Below are positions 2,971 through 63,600 of a stretch of DNA of 64,000 nt, in pieces. The translations under genes and the position numbers were made by a program. Position 1 is the stretch's first letter. Each line of letters starts with the position of its first letter. Source of the stretch: Squalus acanthias (lineage: Eukaryota); contig CM059432.1 in the NCBI GenBank assembly GCA_030390025.1, positions 30,196,001-30,260,000 of the forward strand, written 5' to 3'. The notes beneath the pieces were generated by a model. That model saw only the letters and a program-made list of their open reading frames with translations, searched no databases and was not told the DNA's origin.

Positions 2971-3861
2971 AGGGGGAAAAGAAAGAAAAATCAGAATTTT
3001 CTCCAACTAAACTGCTGCCACACGCTCTCAGAAACTATCTACAAATGAAGGCAGGGAACAATTACCGATTTGGTGCCAATTATTTCTTCTCCCAAATAGC
3101 ACAACATGAATGCAAGTATGTCTGCAATTGTTTTCTTGCCCTGGGAATAAGATACAATATTTTTCCTGCCCCTACTGTGGTCCCACAGTTAGTCACTGTT
3201 CATTCAGCTCTGGGATCAAATACAGCCCAGATTGCGTAAACATTTTTCTCAGTCTGTTAATTGGAACAGCTGGAGAGTTAGGTCACAAAATGATGCCTTG
3301 TTGTCCTGTCTTGCTAGAGCAGGGTCTTTGAGAGCCAAGTGATTCTATGTATTTCAATGAGTTCAGAAATAGGAGAAGGTCGGTTTAGTTCTGCTCAGGT
3401 TCATACTATAAAATAAAAACTACATTTTATTCCGCAGATATTTAACACTAACATTAGCCTGTAGGTCTCAATCTCAGGTTGGCCAAAATTGCTATCAGTC
3501 ACACAGAAAACAAAAGGTTTGTAAATTTGACTGGGGAGGGGGAGCAAGAGGGGTAGAAGGAACAGTAACTCAATGCATCTTTAAAAAAAACAAGAAAAAA
3601 AAAGCACAAGAAACCAAACAGCAAAATAAACAGAAGGTTTACCAGACTATCAGGGCAGTACTTAGTTAACTCTTTGGTTGCTGGCAGGTACATGAAAACT
3701 GCTATTTCCTCGCATTCACTGGTTTAGTTTGTTTTCAGCTCAGTGCCCCATGATGCTGAAAACCCCCTGTCAATATTACAACTATAAAGCTACTCTATTG
3801 TGACTATCTTCATTTCAGTAATATTAACCCTGAAATAATAAACACAATTTTAAATATAAAT

Positions 3862-15930: not shown

Positions 15931-16387
15931 GAATAATGAGTTGGGAAAATAAAGTTTCAGATTGAAAAATAAAGCACCAGAAGTGGATTACAATGTTACC
16001 TGTATCAGAACAAAAACTGTTATAGCATAATGGTGCAGCATATATGCATCAATATTGTTGCAGCATTGCACTGGATCACTACAGAGTGAATTTGCAGCCA
16101 ACTTTCAAACTAGAATCCATGCTGGGACCATTCGCCTTTTAAAAATTAATAAATTGTGAATTACGGCAGTGCACGGTGTTGGGAGTCCTGATGCACCTTG
16201 CCACAGACTGGTAGGGTGAGGATTTAAAACTGAAATCATCACAAAATGAATTATCAATCTCAGACGTCTCATTATGGGAAGAGGGCAGAAGAGAGAGCAG
16301 GTGCTGCTGCCTTACAAACAGGGAGAGGGCAGTCAGAGGAACAGTCACCCCAAGACAGTCTTACTTACCTGCTTCTGACAGGCTTTA

Positions 16388-16574
16388 CAAAAGCAAATTA
16401 TTGCAGATACTGGAAATCTGAAATAAAAACAGAAAATGCTGGAAATACTCAGCCGGTCAGACAGCATCTGTGGAGAGAGAAACAGAGTTAACGTTTCAAA
16501 AGTTAACTCTGTTTCTCTCTCCACAGATGCTGTCTGACCGCTGAGTATTTCCAGCATTTTCTGTTTTTATTTCG
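16388..16574 (-). mobile_element. Fold-back Penelope-derived element, family A (hammerhead centre deleted)
   Basis: ~75-bp arm inverted repeat; 11-bp TSD GACAGGCTTTA (16377-16387 / 16575-16585). Confidence 0.8.
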
Positions 16575-16759
16575 GACAGGCTTTAGTTGTGTTGATTGAG
16601 GGAGACTAGGGATCAGGTCACACCATACTCTCCTCCCTAAATCATGCAAGGCATAAGCAGACCCACACAGATGGAAAGAGATAAATAAAAAATATTTTAG
16701 CCCCCAAAATAGGAAGAGATAACTTTTTAAAGAAAAAACAATGAAACAACATTTCTAAT

Positions 16760-17921
16760 GAGAGAAGAGAGTGGTATCTTTCTGTGATGTCACTTTGCAG
16801 TATACAACACAGATTTGGGAATAGATAGAAATTCTGGATTTCAACTTTGGAAGATTAAGAAGAAATTTTGCAGAAGAGGAGCTAAAATAATTATTGGAAA
16901 GTCTATGTCTGAGCGAATTGTACTTTGTGAAAAAAACGGGATTAATAGTCTGGTAAATAGAGCATAAACTGATAGCCAAGTTCCGCACCCATGAGGACGG
17001 CCTCAACCGGGATCTTGGGTTCATGTCACGCTACATGTAACCCCACTTGACGTAGAGTCATCCAGACTTGAGTCGTCGTTGGCTTGTTCTCTCTACACAG
17101 ATGCGGCCGGACCTGCTGTGATTTCCAGCAAAAAAAGTTTTTTGTTTTCCATACAGACCCCAGCATCTGCCACATTTGACCCCTTGTGACCCCACCTCAT
17201 TGTCTTTGATGTAATGTTTTCCTGACTGACCTGTTTGGACACCATCCACACCTTTGATTGCCGTGATTATCTCTCTGCCGAGGTGCGATAAAGGGCAGTT
17301 AGAAAGATTAACTGTAATCATCTGATAGTGTTCTCTGACTATATATGCTGTGTCTATATACATCTCTTCACTTCACCTGACGTTCCGAAAGCTTGTGATT
17401 TCAAATAAAACTGTTGGACGATAACCTGGTGTTGTGCGACTTCTCACATTTGTCCACCCCAGTCCAACACCGGCATTTCCACATCATGGTAAATAGAGGC
17501 ATGGCAGGGCAGCTCAGTCCCATGATTTGCACATCCTGTGCCATGTGGGAAATCCTGGATGCTTCTTGCGGCCTGGATGACCACGTGTGCAGGAAGTGTC
17601 ACCAACTGCAGCAACTCGAGCTCCGGGTTTCGGAGCTTGAGTGGCAGCTGGAGTCACTACAGTGCATCCGCGAGGCCGAGACATACTTGGAAAGCATGTT
17701 TCTAGAAGTGGTCACACCGCAGCCTCAGAATGTGCAGGCACAGAGGGAATGGGTGACCACCAGACAGAGAAGGAGGACCAGACAGGTAGGGCAGGAATCT
17801 CCAGAGTGCATCTCACTCACTAACCGGTTTTCAGCTCTGGAAACAGGTGGGGGTGATGGTTCCTCAGGGGAAAGCAGCCAGGCAGAGCCAAGGCAACGGC
17901 ACCACATGTGGCTCAGCTGCA

Positions 17922-32020: not shown

Positions 32021-32332
32021 TACAAACAATAATCTTGATTATCCACATCGCTTTTTCTTTAACTTCATTTTCGAAAAGAAGAACTCTGCCCATTTTGAAC
32101 AGCTTGCTTCCAGTGTGGCTGTTGCTATTTAAAGGTTTAACAACTCCACTAAATGCTATGCTATCCTTTTCAACACATGAATCTGCAGCAGCCCAGTGTG
32201 AAGTTCAGCCACAGTGACACCCAGTTTTATTGATTGTAGTCCAGATTTGTAGAAAGGACAGGTTGATGTTTCAGGATTCTGATGAAAGGTACACACCCAA
32301 AACTATACATGTCCTTTATCTTTATAGATGTT

Positions 32333-32522
32333 AATGAGAAGTCGCACAACACCAGGTTATAGTCCAACAGTTTTATTTGAAATTACGAGCTTTCGGAGCG
32401 CTGCTCCTTCGTCAGGTAAAGCACTCCGAAAGCTCGTAATTTCAAATAAAACTGTTGGACTATAACCTGGTGTTGTGCGACTTCTCATTTTTGTCCACCC
32501 CAGTCCAACACCGGCATCTCCG
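32333..32522. mobile_element. Fold-back Penelope pLTR element, family B, with hammerhead motif on the minus strand
   Basis: Minus strand CTGACGA-A-GGAGC-AGC-GCTCC-GAAAGC; ~65-bp near-perfect inverted arms; 13-bp TSD CTTTATAGATGTT (32320-32332 / 32523-32535). Confidence 0.85.
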
Positions 32523-32888
32523 CTTTATAGATGTTGACTGACATGCTACATTTCCAACCGTTTCAGTTTTTATTTTAGATTCATAGCATTGGTAGTTTTT
32601 CCTTTTTATTTTTATTTTTGTAGAATTTCAGTTTCATTGATTTTTTTTCTGAAAGCAAATGTTATTTGAATAGCCAGGTATGCAACTGCATTGTTCTACT
32701 TTTTTCTGCTGTATTTTCTCCCCCTACTTTTATAGATTCCCTATTACCATCATAAACCATGCACCTACTTCAAAGACTCCATCATTGCCAATCCACAGCC
32801 ATAAAGAAATGTCAACCACACCTCTCTTTCCTTGCTGCCCTTATAAATTTTTCCTCAACTTGTCACTTCCCTCAAGAGCCTACACCGA

Positions 32889-35828: not shown

Positions 35829-36743
35829 AAGCATCTTGTCTCTATTCAGCATTTTTCTTCTCTCCAATACTGCAATGGTGCAACAAAAGACCACAGCAGC
35901 TTTTAAAAAGGACTGAATGAATTCCCATTAGTAAACCGGATACAGGGTAGGCTAAATAGACCAATGGTTGTCTCCTACCCAAACATTACTATGTTATATA
36001 ACCTTGTTGAGATTAAGAACTTGAGTGGAGGCAGCCACAAATTTATGACTATATCATAGTCCCAATGGCATACCGACTCAAAACTCTTCAAGGAAATAGC
36101 CTTCATTTAATTCCAATGATTGCTCACAATACAACTGCCTAGGGGACTCCTATAACTGCCACAATAGGATCCCCCAGGCTAGCACTGTATGGTGTAGTAG
36201 AGGCATTATATAAAGCTGTTTTATATTATTCTTGTGTCACAGACTTCCAACATGTAGGTCTCACACAGCTAGCAGCAACCACAAGCTAGACTCTCCAGTT
36301 TTTTTTTAAGGTTAGTCAAGGTGAAAGGAAGAAATAGGGGAAAAGAATGGGCCCAACCCATTCTACTCTTTCTCCAACAGCCATCACAAGTTATAATTTT
36401 ACTGCCTCATTAGTTTTGGTGCTACCCTAATAACTTAATGTAAAAAAAAATATAGAATCCCTAAATTACATCTGTTTTAAAGTGCAATTGTGTTTTAACA
36501 GTATAGTTAAATGTAGATATTAAAAAACAAAATCATAATTTAAAATAAAAACAGAAGTGCTCGAACCATATTGCAGGACGGTCAGCAGCTAAAATGCTGA
36601 GTGCTTCCTGCATTTTCTGTTTTTATAACAATTTAACATAGGCTTGGTAAAGTGAGTGTCACCACTGTAAAATATTTCCTGGGATTAAATTTAAATTGTG
36701 AAATACAGTAATGGTATAAAGCATAAGCATGGAAAATACTTAC

Positions 36744-36872
36744 TTCTCATTCTGATAAACTTCTACTGAGCTGTTCAGTTCCTCTAGTTCTTCCTTCAGG
36801 AGCTGCAAGTTAGAGTTCACAAAACTCAGTTCCAGAGCCACGGTTTCCTTCACCTTGTTGTTAGTTGTAGCT
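36744..36872 (-). CDS. RHPN1: Rhophilin-1 coding exon 3 ([42 protein letters not shown])
   Basis: ttgcag| acceptor, |GTAAGT donor, 129 nt, phase 2-2; '[23 protein letters not shown]' is RHPN1-type (RHPN2 has [17 protein letters not shown]). Confidence 0.96.
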
Positions 36873-42867: not shown

Positions 42868-42983
42868 CGAAATAGATTTTCAGCACCTGCTCGCATTCGC
42901 ATCTCCTTGTTAATCTGCTGGTTAATCCGGGCTCGGCGGTTTTGCAGCTTGCTCCGCTGAGTCTGTGCAAAGGGATCACAGCC
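42868..42983 (-). CDS. RHPN1: Rhophilin-1 coding exon 2, HR1 domain ([39 protein letters not shown])
   Basis: ttatag| acceptor, |GTGAGT donor, 116 nt; translation matches the rhophilin HR1 Rho-binding repeat from recall. Confidence 0.96.
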
Positions 42984-46030: not shown

Positions 46031-46318
46031 AAGGAACTGCAAATCAATGGGGACCAACATCATTCTAATTAAGAACACTCGGTCTTGGTATACCAAACAT
46101 TGGTTACCTACGATTAACAATTAGGGAATCAAGGGACATGGGGATAGTGCAGGAAAGTGGAGCGGAGGTAGACTAGCCATGATCTTATTGAATGGTTAGC
46201 AGGCTCGAGGGGCCGAATGGCCTACTCCTGCTCCTATTTCTTATGTTCTTATTAGCTGCCACTTAACAACTAGCTGCATCACCGAAGACCCAGCTGAAAC
46301 AACTAGGTACTGCTGTAA

Positions 46319-46520
46319 TAACAACAGAAAACGCTGGAAAAACTCAGCAGGCCAGGCAGCATCCGTGGAGAGAGAAAGAGAGTTAACGTTTCAGGTCGAT
46401 GAAAGGTCATCGACCTGAAACGTTAACTCTCTTTCTCTCTCCACGGATGCTGCCTGGCCTGCTGAGTTTTTCCAGCGTTTTCTGTTGTTATTTCGGATTT
46501 CCAGCATCCGCAGTATTTTG
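46319..46520 (+). mobile_element. Fold-back Penelope-derived element, family A
   Basis: ~85-bp perfect inverted arms around GATGAAAGGTCATC; 16-bp TSD CTAGGTACTGCTGTAA (46303-46318 / 46521-46536). Confidence 0.88.
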
Positions 46521-47600
46521 CTAGGTACTGCTGTAAGCAGCTCATGGATGCTCAGAGGCTAAGCAAATTAAACTGCTTTTGAACAGCTTAAAATTAATAC
46601 TTTTTCTCAACAAAAACAAAGTTTAGCACTGTTTTTGTACAGTATTTTAACTATTTACTAAAACCAAAGAGGTTTACAGAATAGAATAAGTCTATTCAGC
46701 CCACCGTGTCTGCGGTGGCCTTTGCTGAAGCAATCCAAAACTAATTCCATTGTTCCGTGCTCTCCCCATAGCCCTTTGTCTTCTACTGCTTCAAATACTC
46801 ATCCAATTTTCCCTTAAAAGATGCAATGGTGTGTGAATCAACAACAGCATGACAAAACATTCTGTGCGCCAACAAGTCTTTGCATAACAAAAGTTTTCCT
46901 AACCTCACACTGTATTTTTAATTGTAAATTTAATAATTTACAAACAAATGAAAAATTAATAAGTTTTTAAATAGAATCCTATGGATAAATTACATGAATC
47001 CTCAAAAGTAATTGTTATATTCAATAGGCAAAACTAACATACAGATCTATAATAATCAGTGAAACTTTACAATAATTCTACTGACAAGCAGACGGCCCAG
47101 AATTGCTAAATTCTGATACAGTTCTTGTCAGTAGAAATATGCAACTGTGCTGACATCGAGACTCAACACACTGCTTCCTACACTAATTTATTCTTTCCTC
47201 AGTTCTTAAAATTGTGTAACTCTTTTTTTTTCCATTTCTTCACTTCTCCCTGCAATGTGGTTATGTCATATCTTGGAAAATGGAGAATGGAGGTGTCTAT
47301 TATGAGCGTGTTCCTTATGGAGAAATTGCCACATAACCCAGAGAGCCTGCACTCATATGTATTTTTTTTTCAACTTGGAACAAGATCAAGTGGAACATAG
47401 CTGTTGGAATGGATATGGGCAATTGGGACTTATTTTTCCCATCCTACAGTCAGCTACAAAATAATGTCCCTTCAGCATATCACAGTAGTACAGATAATGC
47501 CTTTTGGGGTAGCGGTGGTGCAAGCTAGGCTTGGGATCTACATGGGTGAAACTTTTCCTGTACCCACTGCAGAATTTCCCCTGTATTTCTCGCCATAACT

Positions 47601-47917
47601 AATTTTCCTGTATTTTCTTCTGTATGCATCCATCTTTCTTTAAAAAAGACAGTATGTTATATATTCTGTAAGTTACAGACATCGAATGTTTATTACATTA
47701 TATATATTGTGTATGTTACAATCTCACTTTACTGTTTATTACAGTATTACATTATATATTCTTCCTGTTACTGTAATAAACAGTAAAGGGAGATTGTAAC
47801 ATACACAATATATATATAATGTAATAAACATTCAGTGTCTGTAATATACAGAATATATAATATACTGTCTTTTTTTTAAAGAAAGGTGAATGCATACAGA
47901 AGAAAATACAGGAATTT
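47601..47917. repeat. AT-rich imperfect palindrome (~145-bp arms)
   Basis: TTCCTGTATTTTCTTCTGTATGCAT... / ...ATGCATACAGAAGAAAATACAGGAA; core repeated at 47923-47975. Confidence 0.85.
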
Positions 47918-48429
47918 TACAAGTTTATTACAGTATTACATTATATATTCTTTCTGTTACTGTAATAAACAGTACAGGGAATGTATACAAAACATTTATA
48001 ACATACTGTAAACAGTAATGGGAGAGTGTATATTATAAATATTTTATACATTACACTCCCTCTGCACGTTCATTGAATTACCATGTACATTGGCTGTAAA
48101 GTACTTTGGGATGTGAAAGGCACTGTATAAATGCAAGTTCTTTCATTCTATGGTTCGGATGCTTTGATGTGCATCACAGACGTAGATGCAATTTTTTCAT
48201 TTTGGTAACAGTTTATTCAACCTGATCAAACTAATTTAATGTACAATATTTCTAGATTTGCATAATAGCGCAAGCCATGACATAGCTGCAATATGTAACA
48301 AGTCAATGAAAGAGTGACCATGGACAGTCTAAAACACAACACGAGGGTTCAGATGTAGAGGACAGTATAGCAGTTCAGACGATAGTTGACTGATTATGAT
48401 GTTTATTACAGTAATATACTGTATATTAC

Positions 48430-49409: not shown

Positions 49410-50010
49410 CATGTTTTACTCTCCTTGTATGTTTATTACTGTGTTATAGTATATATTCAGTATGTTACTGTAATAAATAGAGGGAGAGTGCAACATACAG
49501 AATATATATTACAATACTGCAACAAGCAATACTGTGAGAGTGTATTATAGTAGATATTCTGTATGTCAGGCTCCCTGTATGTATGTTACACTATTGTAAC
49601 ATATAATTCTGTGTGTTGCACTCACCCTGTATTGGTTATGATTACATTATATTATATATCCTGAGATCCACTCTTCCTGTGTTGTTTATGACTACAGTAC
49701 ATATTCTGTATGTTCCACTCTCCTTGTATTGGTTATGATTACAGTATATATTCTATCTTACACTCACCCTGTATTATGATTACAGTATATATTCGGTGTT
49801 TCACTCTCCCTGTATTATGATTACAGTATATATTCGATGTTTCACTCTCCCTGTATTATGATTACAGTATATATTCAATATGTTCCACTCTCCTTGTATT
49901 GGTTATGATTACAGTATATATTCTGTGTTACACTCACCCTGTATTATGATTACAGTATATACACTCACCCTGTATTATTACAGTATATATTCTATGTTAC
50001 ACTCTCTTTA
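49410..50010. repeat. Minisatellite, 41-47 bp unit CACTCTCCCTGTATT(GGTT)ATGATTACAGTATATATTC..TGTT
   Basis: Units start at 49761, 49802 and 49843 (41-bp period) and degenerate outward. Confidence 0.85.
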
Positions 50011-50039
50011 TATCTATCACACGAGTCTCTATTCCAACC

Positions 50040-50640
50040 CCTACACGCGCTGCGCGCCGCCCCGCTGACAGGTGCCCGTCTCCCTGGAAACGCGGCCCGC
50101 CGCCCTATCCCCGCACTCAGTCGCCCAGCCTTACCTTGCGAACACTGCCATTCCCCCGCAGCTCACTTTCCACTCCGCTCTCCGTCATACCACTCCGTCC
50201 TGCCCCACTGAAGTAGAAATCCAACGAACCGGCCCGGCGGGAGATATAAACCTCCGACACCGCCCCCGGTAAACACTTCAGCCTCCCCCACACCCGGCTT
50301 TAAGCGCGATTTCTATCCGCCCTCGCAGCGCAGAGTGGCTCCGCACTCGGACTGTGCGCGAGACGGACAGTCCGATCCCCCGGATGTCCCCTGTCCCGCC
50401 CCCTCCCCGTCGCTAACTGTAGTGACAGACAGCCTCCAAAGCCAGTCCAACGTTCAGTTACCCTGAGCAACGCGCCAAATAGGAAGCCGACAACCAATCG
50501 GATGGAAGGATAGGCGGGGATTGCGGCGCTGTCAAGTTCGTTGAGGGAGGCGGGTCTTCACACTGAGACCCCGCCCACTGAGCCGAGGAGTGACATCATC
50601 GAGTAAAAGAATTAAAGGGGCCCTGTCGCCTGGGGAATCT
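50040..50640 (-). promoter_or_regulatory. RHPN1: CpG island / promoter and 5' UTR of RHPN1
   Basis: Non-repeat CpG-rich tract around exon 1; CCAAT at ~50495, GC-box-like GGCGGG/CCGCCC at ~50513, ~50549 and ~50571, TGACATCA at ~50591. Confidence 0.75.
50135..50188 (-). CDS. RHPN1: Rhophilin-1 coding exon 1 (MTESGVESELRGNGSVRK)
   Basis: ATG at 50188-50186 within a CpG island; 18 codons ending AAG|GTAAGG donor; phase 0 joins exon 2 to give the rhophilin 'RKGCDP' motif. Confidence 0.85.
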
Positions 50641-50722
50641 AAAAAGAAAGACTTGCATTTCTATAGCGCCTTTCACGACCACCGGACGTCTCAAAGCGCT
50701 TTACAGCCAATGAAGTACTTTT

Positions 50723-50828
50723 GAAACGTTAACTCTCTTTCTCTCTCCACGGATGTTGCCTGGCCTGCTGAGTTTTTCCAGCGTTTTCTGTTGTTATTTC
50801 TGATTTCCAGCATCCGCAGTATTTTGCT
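50723..50828 (+). mobile_element. Family A Penelope-derived monomer inserted in a minus-strand SINE tail
   Basis: Nearly identical to the right arm of 46319-46520; flanked by duplicated AAGTACTTTTGAA. Confidence 0.8.
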
Positions 50829-51042
50829 AAAGTACTTTTGAAGTGTAGTCACTGTTGTAATGTAGGAATAAGGGGATGGAATGGCTTTATTTTTAAACTA
50901 TACATTGTAAATATATAAGTATGAAATGATGCCGTCAAGCAGCAGGTCGTCTACAAGACAGCGCAGTGGTTATTGTGCTGCACCGGCAGCCCAGAGGTCA
51001 TGAGTTCCATGGTAAGTTGTGCAATTGAATTCAATAAATCTG

Positions 51043-51261
51043 TATAAAAACAGAACATGCTGGAAACACTCAGCAGGTCAGGCAGCACCTGTGGAGAGAG
51101 AAACAGAGTTAACTTTTCAGGTCGTGTTCTGACGAAAGGTCATCGACCTGAAATGTTAACTCTGTTTCTCTCTCCACATATGCTGCCTGACCTGCTGAGT
51201 ATTTCCAGCATGTTCTGTTTTTTTATACCAGATTTCCAGCATCCGCTGTATTTTGCTTCAG
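51043..51261 (+). mobile_element. Fold-back Penelope-derived element, family A, with complete hammerhead core
   Basis: GTT-CTGACGA-A-AGGTC-ATC-GACCT-GAAA-TGTT-AAC at ~51126-51160; inverted arms; TSD TAAATCTG (51035-51042 / 51262-51269). Confidence 0.85.
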
Positions 51262-52346
51262 TAAATCTGGTAATTTGTTTGCTGGTTGACAAATACAGAA
51301 CAGGGGACTCTGCCACCACCTCTACTCAGTATGGCCCCTGATTTTGCCGATGATGAGGAAGATCTGTACAGACCGTGCAGAAATAGAGTACATAGGCTGA
51401 GAGCTCAGCCTGCCTGGACTGACCAATGCTGCCAGTGGTGTCTGGTTACAGGGACTGGATCCGCTCGGGCCCTTGACTGTCTCATGGCCCCATGCAATTA
51501 ACAACATAAGAACATAAGAAATAAGAGCAGGAGTAGGCCATACGGCCCCTTGAGCCTGCTCCGCCATTCAATAAGATCATGGCTGATCATCGACCTCAAC
51601 GCCACTTTCCCGCTCGATCTCCATATCCCTTGATTCCACTAGAGTTCAAAACTCTATCTATCTCAGCCTTGAATATACTCAAAGACTCAGCATTCACAGC
51701 CCTCTGGGGCAGAGAATTCCAAAGATTCACAACCCTCTGAGTGAAGAAATTCCTCCTCATCTCAGTCTTAAATGGCCTACCTCTTATCCTGAGACTATGC
51801 CCCCTAGTTTTAGACACTCCAGCCAGGGGAAACAACCTCTCAGCATCTACCCTGCCAATCCCCTTCAGAATCTTGTATGTTTCAATGAGAACACCTCTCA
51901 TTCTTCTAAACTCCAGAGAGTATAGGCCCATTCTACACAATCTCTCATCATAGGACAGCTCTCTCATCCCAGGAATCAATCTAGTGAACCTTCGTTGCAC
52001 CGCCTCCAAGGCAAGTATATCCTTCCTGAGATAAGGAGACCAAAACTGTGCACAGTACTCCAGGTGTAGTCTCACCAAGGCCCTGTACAATTGTAGCAAG
52101 ACTTCCTTACTCTTATACTCCAACACCCTTGCAATAAAGGCCAACATGCCATTTACCTTCCTTATTGCTTGCTGTACCTGCATGCTAGCTTTCTGTGTTT
52201 CTTGCACGAGGACACCCAAATCTCTCTGAACACCAACATTTAAAAGTTTCTCACCATTTAAAAAATATTCTGTTTTTCTATTCTTCCTACCAAAGTGAAT
52301 AACCTCACATTTCCCTACATTATACTCGATCTGCCACCTTACTGCC

Positions 52347-55509: not shown

Positions 55510-57285
55510 GTCAACACTGGGATAGGAGAAGGACTGTAACAAATTACAAGAAGACATTAATAAACTTGCAGAATGGGCATATAAGGCAAATTAATTTCAA
55601 CATAGATAAGTGAGGTATTACATTTTGGTAAGAAAAATAAGGAGGTCACATATTACTTGAAACATAACAATCTAAATGGGGTAGAGGAGCAAAGGGATCT
55701 GGGAATACAAATACACAAATCACTAAAAGTTGCAATGCAGGTCAGTAAGGCCATAACAAAAGCAAACAAGCACTAGGGTTAATTTCTAGAGGGATAGAAT
55801 TGAAAAGTAGAGAAGTTAAGATAAACTTGTATCGAACCATGGTTAGAAGACACTTGGAGTACTGTGTACAGTTCTGGTCGCCATATTATAAAAAGGATAT
55901 TAGAGGCACTGGAAAGGGTGCAAAAAATATTTACAAGGTTGATACCAGAAATGCGAGGGTATACCTATCAGGAAAGGATGAACAACCTGTGTCTCTTTTC
56001 TCTTGAAAAGAGAAGGCTGAGGGCTGACCTAATAGAGGTCTTTAAAATTATGAAATATTTTGATAGAGTAGACACAGAGGCCGCGATTTTGCCAGTGCTC
56101 AGAGGGCGGGTTTGGAGGCGGGTCAAAGGGTAAAATCGTTTTGATTGACGGCGGGTTGCAATCCCGCCATCAACCCGCCTCCAAACAATTTTCCCAAGTG
56201 TCGGGTCCCCGATTTGCGCATGGACCCGACACTTAGCGGCGGGAAGAGGATTAAAGGCAATTACCTGCCGATTAACAGGTAGTTGCTAGTAGTTGACAGT
56301 CTATTTTTGAATTTTGCCGCTTCTGCCTCGGGTTTCCCGATGTCCGGACACCACTCCAGGTAAGTGTGGCGTGTTGTGAGTCTGCTGTAATATTTCTGGA
56401 TTGATGACAGCTGCAGAAGTGGTGTGAATGGTCCAATGTTGCACTGGTGAGTCTCAGAGGTAAGAACATGTTGGGAAATGCATTTTTAATACCTTTACAT
56501 ATTTCTTTAGGTTACAAGTTTTGAAATCCATGTCCAGTGCCACCTCATTGGGAGAACCTCTCTCACCAGTGACAGATCGCTTCTGTCACTTCACCTGCAG
56601 CTGCCATCTATTCCAGCCTATGGAGGGAGTCATTGGAGAACCTGGGTGCAAGAGGTGACCTTTGTGCAGTGATTGTCAGTGTTTGCAGCACCTCAATGCT
56701 GTCAAACACTGAGAAATCAACTGTCAAAAAAAAATTGTGTGTGGTCCCTTTAAGAAAACCGGCAGATGACTCATCATCAAATGAAGTAATCTAACCGGAC
56801 TCCTTTTAATTGACTGGCAAGCCCGCAGGGCGGGCTTAACAAGGTAAATCAACGTAAAACCACGTCTGTGGGCTGGATGCAGCTGGGGGCGGGACTGGAG
56901 GCCGGAAACCACCTGACCCGCACCTAACCCACCTCCATTGATAAAATTGCGGCCAGAGAGTGCGTTTCCACTTGTGGGGAAGAGCAAAACTAGAGGCCAT
57001 CAATATAAGATCGTCACCAAGAAATCAAATAGTGAATTCAGAAGAAACTTCTTTACCCAGAGAGTGGTGAGAATGTGGAACTCGCTACCACAGGGAGTAG
57101 TTGAGGCGAATAGCATAGATGCATTTAAGGGGAAGTTAGACAAGCCTATGAGGGAGAAGGGACTCTCTTAGATGAGGAAGGATGGGAGGAGGCTCGAGTG
57201 GAGCATAAACGGCAGCATGGACTGGTTGGCTCGAATGGTCTGTTTCTGTGCTGTATATTCTATTTAAGTTTATGTACTTCTATAT
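55510..57285 (+). mobile_element. CR1 3' fragment interrupted by a Harbinger MITE
   Basis: [14 protein letters not shown] and RNFFTQRVVRMWNSLP motifs; 3' UTR. Confidence 0.85.
56079..56954. mobile_element. Harbinger MITE
   Basis: TIR GGCCGCGATTTT / AAAATTGCGGCC; TSD AGA. Confidence 0.88.
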
Positions 57286-61257: not shown

Positions 61258-61426
61258 TTTATTTCTCTTTCTGTACCTCTTTCTGTACCTGATTTGAAAT
61301 TGAATTCACCCACTCTAACGTACACTTCCTTCTCAGTCCTTGTGCTCTTTATTTCACAAACCTTCAATCTGATTGGTTAAGGAGATACACAGTTGGTTGC
61401 CCTGTTCACACAGGTCCCAGATGCGT

Positions 61427-62293
61427 GGCCGCGATTTTGTCAATGGATGCGGGTTGGGAGTGGGTCAGGTGGTTTCCAGCTTCCAGTCCTGCCCCCAACT
61501 GCATCCGGCCCACGGATGTGATTTTATGTTAACTGACCTTGTTAAGCCCGCCCTGCGGGCTTGCTGGCCAATTAAGAGGATGCTGGTCAGATGACGTCAT
61601 TTGATGATGCGTTATCTGCCGGTTTTCTTAAAGGGACTACGCACAATTTTTTTTTGACAGCTCATTTCTTAGTGCTTGACAGTATTGAGGTGCTGCAAAC
61701 ACTGACAATCACTGTGAGCTCTTGCACCCAGGCTCTCCAGTGATCCCCTCCATAGGCTGGAACAGATGGCAGCTGCAGGTGAGGTGACAGGAGCGATCTG
61801 TCACTGGTGAGAGAGGTTCTCCCAATGAGGTGGTACTAGACATCGTTTTCAAAACTTGTTACCTACAGAAAAGTGTAAATGCATTAAAATGATTTTCCCA
61901 ACATTTTCTTACCTCTGAGACTCACCAGTGTACCAGTGGACCCTTCACACCACTTCTGCAGCTGTCATCAATGCTGTAACATTACAGCAGACTCACAACA
62001 CGCCACACTTACCTGGCGTGGTGTCCGGATGTCGGGAAGCCCGAGGCAGAAGCGGCAAAATTAAAAAATAGCCTGTTAGCTACTCTCAACTACCTGTTAA
62101 CAGGCAGGTAAGTGGCTTTAATCCTCTTCCCACTGCTAGGTGTTGGGTCCATGCGCAAATCGGGGACCCGAGACTTGGGAAAATTGTTTGGAGGCGGGCA
62201 TCGGGCGGGATCGGACCCCGCCGTCAATCAAAACAATTTTAACCTTTGACCCGCCTCCAAACCTGCCTTCTCAGTGCCGATACAATCGCGGCC
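61427..62293. mobile_element. Nested Harbinger MITE, inverted copy of the 56079-56954 family
   Basis: GGCCGCGATT / AATCGCGGCC termini; collinear reverse-complement similarity; TSD not preserved. Confidence 0.8.
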
Positions 62294-63065
62294 ACAGTTT
62301 CCCTCACTGCGGCATCATCAGCTCACACTATCAGCAACTTGCTACACAAAAATTTAAAAACCTAAACATGCAAGGGCAAGTCTAACTAATGGCAGATGCC
62401 GTTAGATGCCCTGCTACAGCAAAATCTGGGCCATTATGTCAGACGCAATTGGGGAAATCCTAAGCCTTTTAGGGTAAATTTTGATATATACAGAGAAGTT
62501 CACCAAGAAATATCTGTTCTTATTATCCTTTTTGTACTGAATCAAGGCATATGGAATGCATTAAAGTTGAATTACAGCTAAAAGTTCAGCCTTTCACATG
62601 TGATTTTGTGTTATGCAGCAGGCCTGTTTGTTATTCATTTGAAGAGTCTCCTGTTGGGATACAGAAATTATTTTACTGTAAGCATTATGTTGGGTCCAAA
62701 AATGCTGAAGTAATGTTAAATTGTAACATGTCAGACTGTAATTTAAATTAATCTACTGCTGATATTCTGTAAAGTGCAGCAGTATACCATTATTCGCTTA
62801 TTCACTCCAATTTCTTACAGTACATTTTGTTATAAACTAGTGCATGTTGCGTGCATGTTCCCAAGTGGAATCTTATTTTGGTCAAAGGGCCACAAATTGG
62901 GCAGTTGGAGGGCAACTGTTGGTGAGAGGACATGAGATAGAGGGACACTGAGGCAAAGGGAATAACGGGGTGTCCAGAAGCAAAGGACTGGCCTTAGCAG
63001 TGAGATCTGATTATATTTCAGATTGGAGCTTTGCAGTGACCCAGTGACAAAGACCGAGTACTATG

Positions 63066-63600
63066 TCAGCCTTGGCTCAGTAGTAGCACTCTTGCCTTTG
63101 AGTCAGAAGGTTGTGGGTTCAATGAAGTACTTTTGAAGTGTAGTCACTGTCGTAATGTAGGAAATGCAGCTGCCAATTTGCACACAGCAATGAGACAATG
63201 GCCAGACTTGGAAATATATCGCCGTTCCTTCATCGTCGCTGGGTCAAAATCCTAGAAATCCCTCCCTAACAGCACTATGGGAGTACCTTCACCCCACGGA
63301 CTGCAGCGGTTCAAGAAGGCGGCTCACCACCACCTTCTCGAGGACAATTAGGAATGGGCAATAAATGCTGACCTTGCCGGTGACGCCCACATCCCATGAA
63401 CGAAAATTTAAAAAATCTGTTTTTAGTGATGTTGGTTGAGGGATAAATATTGGCCAGGATATCGGGGCGAACTCCCTCTACCCTTCTTCGAAAATAGTGT
63501 CATGGGATCGTTTACGTCCTTCTGAAAGGGCAGATGGTGCCTCGGTTTAATATCACGTCCGAAAGGCAGCAGCTCCGACAGTGCAGAACTACTGCACTGG
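63066..63600. mobile_element. Deu-domain SINE pieces (head +, body -) with an inserted LINE 3' end (63207-63416)
   Basis: tRNA-like head TGGCTCAGTAGTAG..GGGTTCAA; clear Deu domain on the minus strand at 63425-63590. Confidence 0.75.

Follow-up and report, generated by a model that had tools for sequence, protein, structure and literature searches.

Short fold-back repeats (family A) in the 64-kb stretch of DNA analysed here (the window) are most probably heavily 5′-truncated 3′ ends (pseudo-LTRs) of an endonuclease-positive (EN+) Penelope-like element (PLE) that is very abundant in sharks. A Penelope-type origin, considered already in the initial annotation, is supported by the inverted 5′-truncated copy, the tail on one side only, the target-site duplications (TSDs) of variable length and the minimal hammerhead motif. 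Below, we present the evidence on the insertions, their ends and hammerhead and on a second, ORF-linked family (family B), and then weigh the possible mechanisms.

Family A Copies Are Insertions

The window represents LINE-rich vertebrate DNA, and the proteins matching its repeats carry shark names at NCBI. The four main copies of family A were all found at the positions initially proposed (pairwise BLASTN identity 77–98%, E ≤ 1e-19): three fold-backs, starting at 46319 (the anchor), 16388 and 51043, and a monomer starting at 50726 (Table 1). The expected variable TSDs were borne out, as exact direct repeats of 16, 11, 8 and 13 bp enclose the anchor, 16388, 51043 and the monomer, respectively; at 3000 random window positions, the chance of a comparable direct repeat was 0.13%, 0.2%, 1.3% and 0.17%.

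In three of the four main copies, an inverted 5′-truncated copy stands beside a direct one. Besides the perfect 86-nt arms of the anchor, the other fold-back copies have arms complementary over 82 nt (94%) and 43 + 37 nt (97–98%). The predicted anchor hairpin has a folding energy of −186 kcal/mol (z −28; 0/200 shuffles were equally stable), and that of copy 51043–51261 of −155 kcal/mol (z −24). The monomer 50726–50829 is 98% identical to the anchor arm.

Among the matches listed, a 1316-nt contig from another organism aligns to the anchor locus only from 46521 on, with no tail and with 74 unplaced letters preceding the alignment, and a contig of the same organism contains the tail. This points to an empty site at the anchor locus in the other organism, where we infer the joint itself, which is not among the matches listed. 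The family A repeats are real insertions, and they arose by a retro-type insertion via staggered cuts that left TSDs of 7–16 bp.

Table 1. Features of the window and their coordinates.
Feature	Position	Strand	Remarks
Relics and family B
PLE ORF end: last 27 codons + stop, GIY-YIG end	16957–17040	+	89% identical to C-terminus of P0004
Family-A-like monomer, 142 bp, 7-bp TSD	17040–17195	+	decayed hammerhead, different helix II; just behind PLE ORF stop
Family B 3′ UTR with internally deleted hammerhead, arm and tail	17196–17490	+	94% to 32333–32521; continuity with ORF end inferred
Old family-A-like relic, 9-bp TSD, variant helix II	32246–32625	+	interrupted by family B insertion
Family B fold-back copy 32333–32522 (190 bp), 13-bp TSD	32320–32535	+	arms of 70 nt, 99% complementary; right arm tailed; tail-less arm with complete minimal hammerhead on − strand (core from 32415)
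Strongly decayed fold-back relic	36537–36636	.	boundaries uncertain
Family A
Fold-back copy 16388–16574, 11-bp TSDs 16377–87/16575–85	16377–16585	−	tail-bearing arm on − strand; hammerhead core without 5′ half; rhophilin intron
Anchor left TSD, 16 bp	46303–46318	.	exact match to 46521–46536; final 2 nt continue inverted arm; first 3 nt = element end of monomer
Anchor inverted arm, tail-less	46319–46402	−	−18 to +68 relative to predicted cleavage site; 86 nt 100% complementary to 46407–46492
Anchor fold-back centre, 5-nt microhomology common to both arms	46398–46402	.	sequence reading; 4-nt loop = 46403–46406
Anchor 5′-truncated minimal hammerhead	46398–46428	+	core without first two bases; helix II 46404–46416; predicted cut after 46424; compared with consensus in PMC4209133 Fig. 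S3
Anchor direct arm	46407–46492	+	BLASTN and inverted-repeat comparison
Anchor tail, ~30 nt, direct arm only	46493–46520	+	contains 9-nt complement of arm +19..+27
Anchor right TSD	46521–46536	.	exact repeat; foreign contig alignment begins at 46521 exactly, without tail
Monomer 50726–50829 with tail, 13-bp TSDs 50713–25/50830–42	50713–50842	+	4 TSD nt shared with element start; 106/108 nt identical to anchor direct arm
Fold-back copy 51043–51261, 8-bp TSDs 51035–42/51262–69	51035–51269	+	sole complete-core family A copy (51129–51153); left TSD: 7 nt match arm continuation
Paralogous empty site for monomer 50713 insertion	63120–63163	+	single 13-mer; flank matches 5 nt left, 25/26 nt right
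Host gene
Exon, HR1 part two	36746–36856	−	PF02185 E 1.6e-06, below curated cut-off
Exon, HR1 part one	42870–42983	−	PF02185 E 7.6e-05, below curated cut-off
Rhophilin-like gene, first coding exon	50135–50188	−	ATG at 50188, read by eye; in-frame join to exon starting 42983

Genomic Setting

The host gene is rhophilin-like, with a further such exon near 1377, and is presumably RHPN1, not RHPN2. The copies had been assigned to its introns, which proved right for 46319 and 16388; the copies 50726 and 51043 lie 0.5–1.1 kb upstream of the ATG, a position given relative to the ATG only, as an additional 5′UTR exon is possible. Intronic RNA hairpins are predicted, as a prediction only, for two of the four main copies. 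The promoter region of the gene, at 50040–50600, is GC-rich.

Several other repeats share the window. An unrelated AT-rich fold-back, for which no TSD was found, occupies 47600–48061 (arms of 71 nt, 90%, and 48 nt, 98%); related to it is a tandem array of 41-bp units, some of its pieces inverted, just inside the first intron (49430–50013). An 885-bp inverted pair, 87% identical, occupies 56071–56955 and 61426–62301, about 4.5 kb apart. Public contigs also join the 3′ end of a neighbouring high-copy repeat (46120–46252) to the ends or hammerhead of family A (46316–46522), with up to 17 contigs per run for each; such joints may reflect a preference for the AT-rich tail of the neighbour or mere chance between two abundant repeats.

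Two Fixed 3′ Ends and Variable 5′ Ends

Positions are counted from the predicted cleavage site, which follows 46424 in the anchor. The 3′ ends of the family A arms fall at two fixed places separated by about 30 nt, namely +98/+99 where the arm has a tail and +67 to +73 where it has none. The 5′ ends of the arms vary and lie at −27/−18 (46319), about −32/−14 (51043), −9/−7 (16388) and −9 (monomer 50726). For the arm start in copy 51043, the aligner gave −27, limited by the reference sequence, and about −32 was used. The fold-back centres differ accordingly, with arm 5′ ends ranging from about −32 to −7, which agrees with the earlier proposal that inversion points vary between copies.

Within a copy, the two arms differ at 0/72 (46319), 1/71 (16388) and 4/72 (51043) sites. 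Between copies, the anchor differs from 16388 and 51043 at 8–9 sites, and 51043 differs from 16388 at 4–6; copy 51043 is the exception, its within-copy difference not being below its difference to 16388. The monomer 50726 differs from the anchor arm at only 1/72 sites. Since one subfamily yielded both a monomer and a fold-back, and since the centres differ, we conclude that the hairpin is made at insertion, as the initial annotation had suggested.

The tail-less ends share 2 nt (46319), 7 nt (51043), 2 nt (16388) and 0 nt (family B copy 32333) with the TSD. At the centre, the two arms of the anchor overlap by 5 nt, and the microhomology in copy 51043 is at most 1 nt.

The tails of both family A and family B carry a 9-nt complement of a stretch located 19–26 nt into the tested segment; a complement at least as long occurred in 1 and 7 of 1000 shuffles, respectively, one copy being tested for each family. 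This complement is perhaps a fold read by the PLE protein. A covariation analysis of the tail helix in five copies gave one compensatory pair, not above shuffles (81–456/500 of them reached the observed values), and the monomer folding z was −0.5 to −1.8 for family A and +0.5 to −1.5 for family B, which gives only a hint of a conserved 3′ structure of the family A and B ends.

The Hammerhead Motif

To call the whole family hammerhead-bearing, as had been done, was an overstatement: the core is complete in one of the four main copies (51043) and incomplete in the other three, the anchor included. The pattern CTGANGA..GAAA has six matches in the window, one of them in family A (51129–51153), and two of the six close a 5-bp helix II, namely 51129 (+ strand, family A) and 32415 (− strand, family B). 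Copies 16388 and 50726 are devoid of the entire 5′ half of the core.

The missing part is supplied by contigs of three public runs (264 in X1, 210 in X8 and 31 in X7, perhaps an RNA run), in which family A extends past the hairpin centre in the upstream direction. With the letters ...ACTTTTTCCAGTTCTGAC, added upstream by their loose ends over the anchor, the core is complete and the motif gains a 4-bp helix I. The loose-end consensus fades about 15–20 nt upstream of the core (agreement 0.46–0.53), a fading that is biased because long contigs are those where the repeat soon ends.

Taken together, 51126–51161 and the loose-end consensus fit the min-HHR consensus, as given in the available part of PMC4209133: a U-rich lead, a 4-bp helix I, an extra base before helix II, a palindromic 15.2–16.2 and NUH. 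The departure is at 10.1–11.1, which is A-U in place of the usual G-C. Judged by its motif, this element fits a predicted minimal type I PLE hammerhead near the 3′ end. Rfam gave no hit at gathering score, and its hammerhead models were absent among 32 and 31 weak hits; those below threshold were generic miRNA-model matches only. Helix II varies in sequence among 51129, the 32275 relic and the 17047 copy, with the pairing mostly kept; in helix I, a compensatory change distinguishes the two family B copies.

All seven well-preserved arms extend 5–32 nt beyond the predicted cleavage site, which argues that the templates of the arms were uncleaved.

In the loose-end consensus upstream of 46398, a CAG preceded by a stretch of pyrimidines coincides with the 5′ strand of helix I, a position resembling that of the helix I intron end mapped in Drosophila virilis Penelope (in the part of PMC4209133 available). 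Two further acceptor-like sites are present in the family A arm, one of them at the start of the tail.

Relics and the ORF-Linked Family B

Three presumed relics of family A could be refined. That at 32275/32536 is indeed family-A-like, and turned out to be a single old copy with a 9-bp TSD split by a younger family B insertion. The one at 17090 is actually a monomer of 142 bp, located inside a family B element and bearing a decayed hammerhead of its own. The third (36540–36630) is a fold-back, too decayed to parse (7-bp TSD, chance 3.9%). The nesting of the two families is reciprocal: a family B fold-back sits within an old family-A-like copy, and a family-A-like monomer within a longer family B copy. 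On the upstream side, the tail-bearing arm of the family B copy 32333 falls about 19 nt short of its tail-less counterpart.

Of 22 candidate proteins, 13, P0004 and P0005 included, have a C-terminus that is 84–92% identical to the ORF end at 16957–17040. According to its precomputed annotation, P0004 (643 aa) comprises RT and PF26215; P0005 has a GIY-YIG domain. A tblastn search with the 13 proteins found PLE ORF sequence in the window only at 16957–17049. Past the 142-bp monomer, the sequence resembles the P0011 read-through at nearly equal spacing and then runs into the family B hammerhead, arm and tail. The ORF end is likely to be continuous with the family B copy at 17196–17490, for which the 7-bp duplication alone would be weak evidence. 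In P0008, a protein predicted for another sample, an inverted family B arm is read through into the same PLE ORF end; P0002, P0003 and P0021 also end in a PLE C-terminus. Because the ORF-bearing family B leaves equally short fold-backs, the simplest reading of the short family A hairpins is that they, too, are truncated PLE ends.

An RT/endonuclease ORF joined to family A was not found, and none of eight candidates had an ORF starting in the arm (+ frame peptide). The eight proteins with an antisense arm (see below) showed no similarity to the three PLE proteins tried. A Pfam scan of ORFs in the window revealed no PLE domain, with one hAT and one LINE-like RT hit; it covered 158 of the 492 non-repeat ORFs of at least 40 aa (838 in total), picked by an exon-likeness score, with 22 more excluded as LINE-derived. 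A fragment of a hAT transposase dimerisation domain lies at 2–526 (PF05699, E 6e-09). A search for the P0004 locus gave 0/1 candidate in viral contigs and 0/29 in prokaryote genomes.

Abundance and Spread in Sharks

The summed contig depth over the element reached 1.4–4.1 million vs. 21–44 in the unique flanks (X1), with a similar contrast in X8, X5 and X7. As summed depth is no direct copy count, it gives only an order of magnitude, with family A numbering about 1e4–1e5 copies.

Among 3129 candidates, eight predicted proteins contain the antisense arm, five of them from Heterodontus francisci and the others from Scyliorhinus canicula, Heptranchias perlo and Rhincodon typus; in two of the eight, the match extends upstream of the hammerhead. 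Family A is therefore common to sharks, as the arm is present in proteins of four shark species. In the predicted isoforms P0028–P0035 (GPR182-like, SNX10B, MLF1 and DNTTIP2-like among them), the arm makes up an in-frame piece of about 20–35 residues. Several of the matches break off close to one and the same codon, which hints at either Alu-like exonisation or mis-annotation.

Pattern scans also pointed to four metagenome loci and one viral locus; all five match over 20–23 nt only, in contigs of 49–59% GC, and were rejected as chance. The available text of PMC8455134 lists Penelope for the whale shark. Searches of the literature found no published description of this shark family, which may already be catalogued in Repbase, Dfam or a bioRxiv supplement. 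The supplement of PMC8557442 showed neither of two arm motifs nor any of four shark genus names sought there.

Discussion

Published accounts of PLE insertions, so far as the available parts of these papers go, describe the main traits of family A: an inverted 5′-truncated copy with a 30–40 bp tail at one end (PMC8557442; an inverted truncated copy and one-sided tail also in PMC8969392), and 9–10 bp TSDs with a 31-bp tail and overlapping inverted pLTRs (PMC3846280). In PMC4209133, truncated PLEs are the interpretation given to opposite-strand pairs of hammerheads and to the mostly solitary motifs. In Anolis, the PLE protein both cuts the two strands and extends them, with RT starting at two tail-separated sites and no need for ribozyme cleavage (PMC11167929).

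For family A, we propose the following course of events. The PLE protein would nick both target strands; one nick would prime reverse transcription at the distal start site and give the tail-bearing arm, and the other would prime at the proximal start site and give the tail-less arm. Synthesis of both cDNAs on uncleaved RNA would break off early, within the hammerhead or close to it, and the two would be joined via 0–5 nt of microhomology into a head-to-head hairpin, while priming at one end only would produce a monomer. Such copies would be dead on arrival and the hairpin a by-product. No observed 5′ end is more than about 40 nt away from the hammerhead, a picture that a short dedicated template would give as well.

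Provided that the PLE origin is correct, we lean slightly towards this priming on two strands. The main competitor on the same premise is snap-back, in which a single cDNA pairs with a short complement within its own sequence and serves as its own template, or an antisense template primes itself; self-priming has been argued for in the available part of PMC3846280. Snap-back is compatible with all three family A junctions. It explains equally well the anchor centre, an exact 5-bp stem with a 4-nt loop between identical arms, and it fits the longer upstream part of the tail-bearing arm in 46319 and 51043. The family B copy speaks the other way: its longer upstream part is on the tail-less arm, which would be unobtainable from a tail-primed cDNA, and for this reason, resting on one copy, we prefer priming on two strands. 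Furthermore, the centre of copy 51043 offers hardly any microhomology to fold on, and the tail-less ends cluster at +66 to +73 with a TSD match of 0–7 nt, as expected from a primed start. Snap-back is thus a tenable account, though on balance we would rather not expect it to be the right one.

A different source of the copies would be a dedicated short non-autonomous element, a PLE-dependent SINE or retrozyme-like unit with source genes of only 130–150 nt and a borrowed PLE protein. The clustering of 5′ ends near the hammerhead, the very high summed contig depth, the fading of the loose-end consensus upstream of the core and the failure to find an ORF joined to family A are all in its favour, and non-autonomous PLE derivatives are described in the available part of 10.64898/2026.07.22.740005. 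We nevertheless consider this explanation improbable: no tandem units occur among 17 TRF rows, the ends are not at the cleavage site and the full core is missing in three of four copies, the ORF-carrying family B makes equally short fold-backs, and public contigs carry family A sequence from upstream of the centre, the fading of the consensus being biased. Nor were a tRNA gene or a pair of A and B boxes found in any of the four copies on either strand. The separate SINE/retrozyme-like family put forward in the initial annotation was thus not upheld.

Two specific classes were rejected. The scan for a tRNA/5S-derived SINE, based on the Pol III A/B box consensus, found no box pair, with 0 tRNA genes and a longest A run of 7. 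A non-LTR retrozyme is at odds with the absence of a head-to-tail array from the 17 TRF rows of the 64-kb window, with the complete core in only one of four copies and with the passage of all seven arms through the cleavage site.

A far-reaching variant would make family A a shark-wide, protein-free unit of 130–150 nt, self-amplified to about 1e5 copies, with 5′ ends set by RT arrest at the hammerhead and mostly in the form of two-strand-primed, perfect 80–90 bp hairpins. We think it quite unlikely. If it were true, the genome would preserve PLE integration junctions made in vivo in huge numbers, enough to settle the choice between two templates and snap-back, and would be supplied throughout with intronic dsRNA on which editing or small-RNA pathways could act. 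Finally, the TSD-flanked long inverted arms might suggest a DNA transposon, either a MITE or a fold-back element with long terminal inverted repeats. Such an origin is scarcely credible given TSDs of 7–16 bp, asymmetric ends with a one-sided tail, differing centres and a monomer with its own TSD and empty site; a fixed breakpoint, true TIRs and a fixed TSD length are all absent among the copies, in line with the initial view.

Returning to truncated PLE ends as the preferred origin, the copies, being numerous, short, young and bounded by TSDs, are well suited as a data set on PLE integration, in particular for priming on two strands vs. snap-back and for the roles of the tail and the hammerhead. 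Such copies are easily mistaken for MITEs or microRNA hairpins, and perfect intronic hairpins could, as a prediction, feed editing or small-RNA pathways.

Comparison with Known Systems

L1 twin priming resembles family A in the inversion within one TSD and in the microhomology with the target and at the centre. The difference is that the L1 parts cover different stretches of the RNA, whereas the family A arms copy the same stretch.

Non-LTR retrozymes, as presented in the available parts of PMC7229834 and 10.64898/2026.07.22.740005, are likewise non-coding, PLE-related and equipped with a type I hammerhead and a long TSD. However, they are head-to-tail tandems with a complete hammerhead per unit and with circRNAs, whereas family A is head-to-head, dispersed and mostly incomplete in its core.

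The minimal type I hammerheads of metazoan PLEs (PMC4209133, available part) share with family A the CUGANGA-H core, the 5-bp helix II, the lack of loop 3, the palindromic C15.2–G16.2, the 4-bp helix I and the U-rich lead; the GUU triplet of family A also occurs in several of the motifs listed there. Family A differs by its A-U in place of G-C at 10.1–11.1, yet A-U stands in three rows of Fig. S3 of that paper; none of the rows available there comes from a shark.

PAc, a Poseidon-type PLE of Anolis carolinensis (PMC11167929, available part), has the same two tail-separated 3′ ends, a hammerhead about 70–100 nt upstream, uncleaved RNA and a tail region that folds into a stem. The PAc ORF begins in helix II, and no such start is shown in family A.

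The closest likeness is to the insertion units of EN+ PLEs, which, in the available parts of PMC3846280, PMC8557442 and PMC8969392, show the same head-to-head inverted copy, the tail of about 30 nt on one arm, TSDs of 7–16 bp, junction microhomology and heavy 5′ truncation; the family A units differ in being only 100–220 bp long and having no ORF. Most likely, family A is known in kind, an ordinary case of the already published Penelope-like insertion pattern and not a new kind of mobile element.
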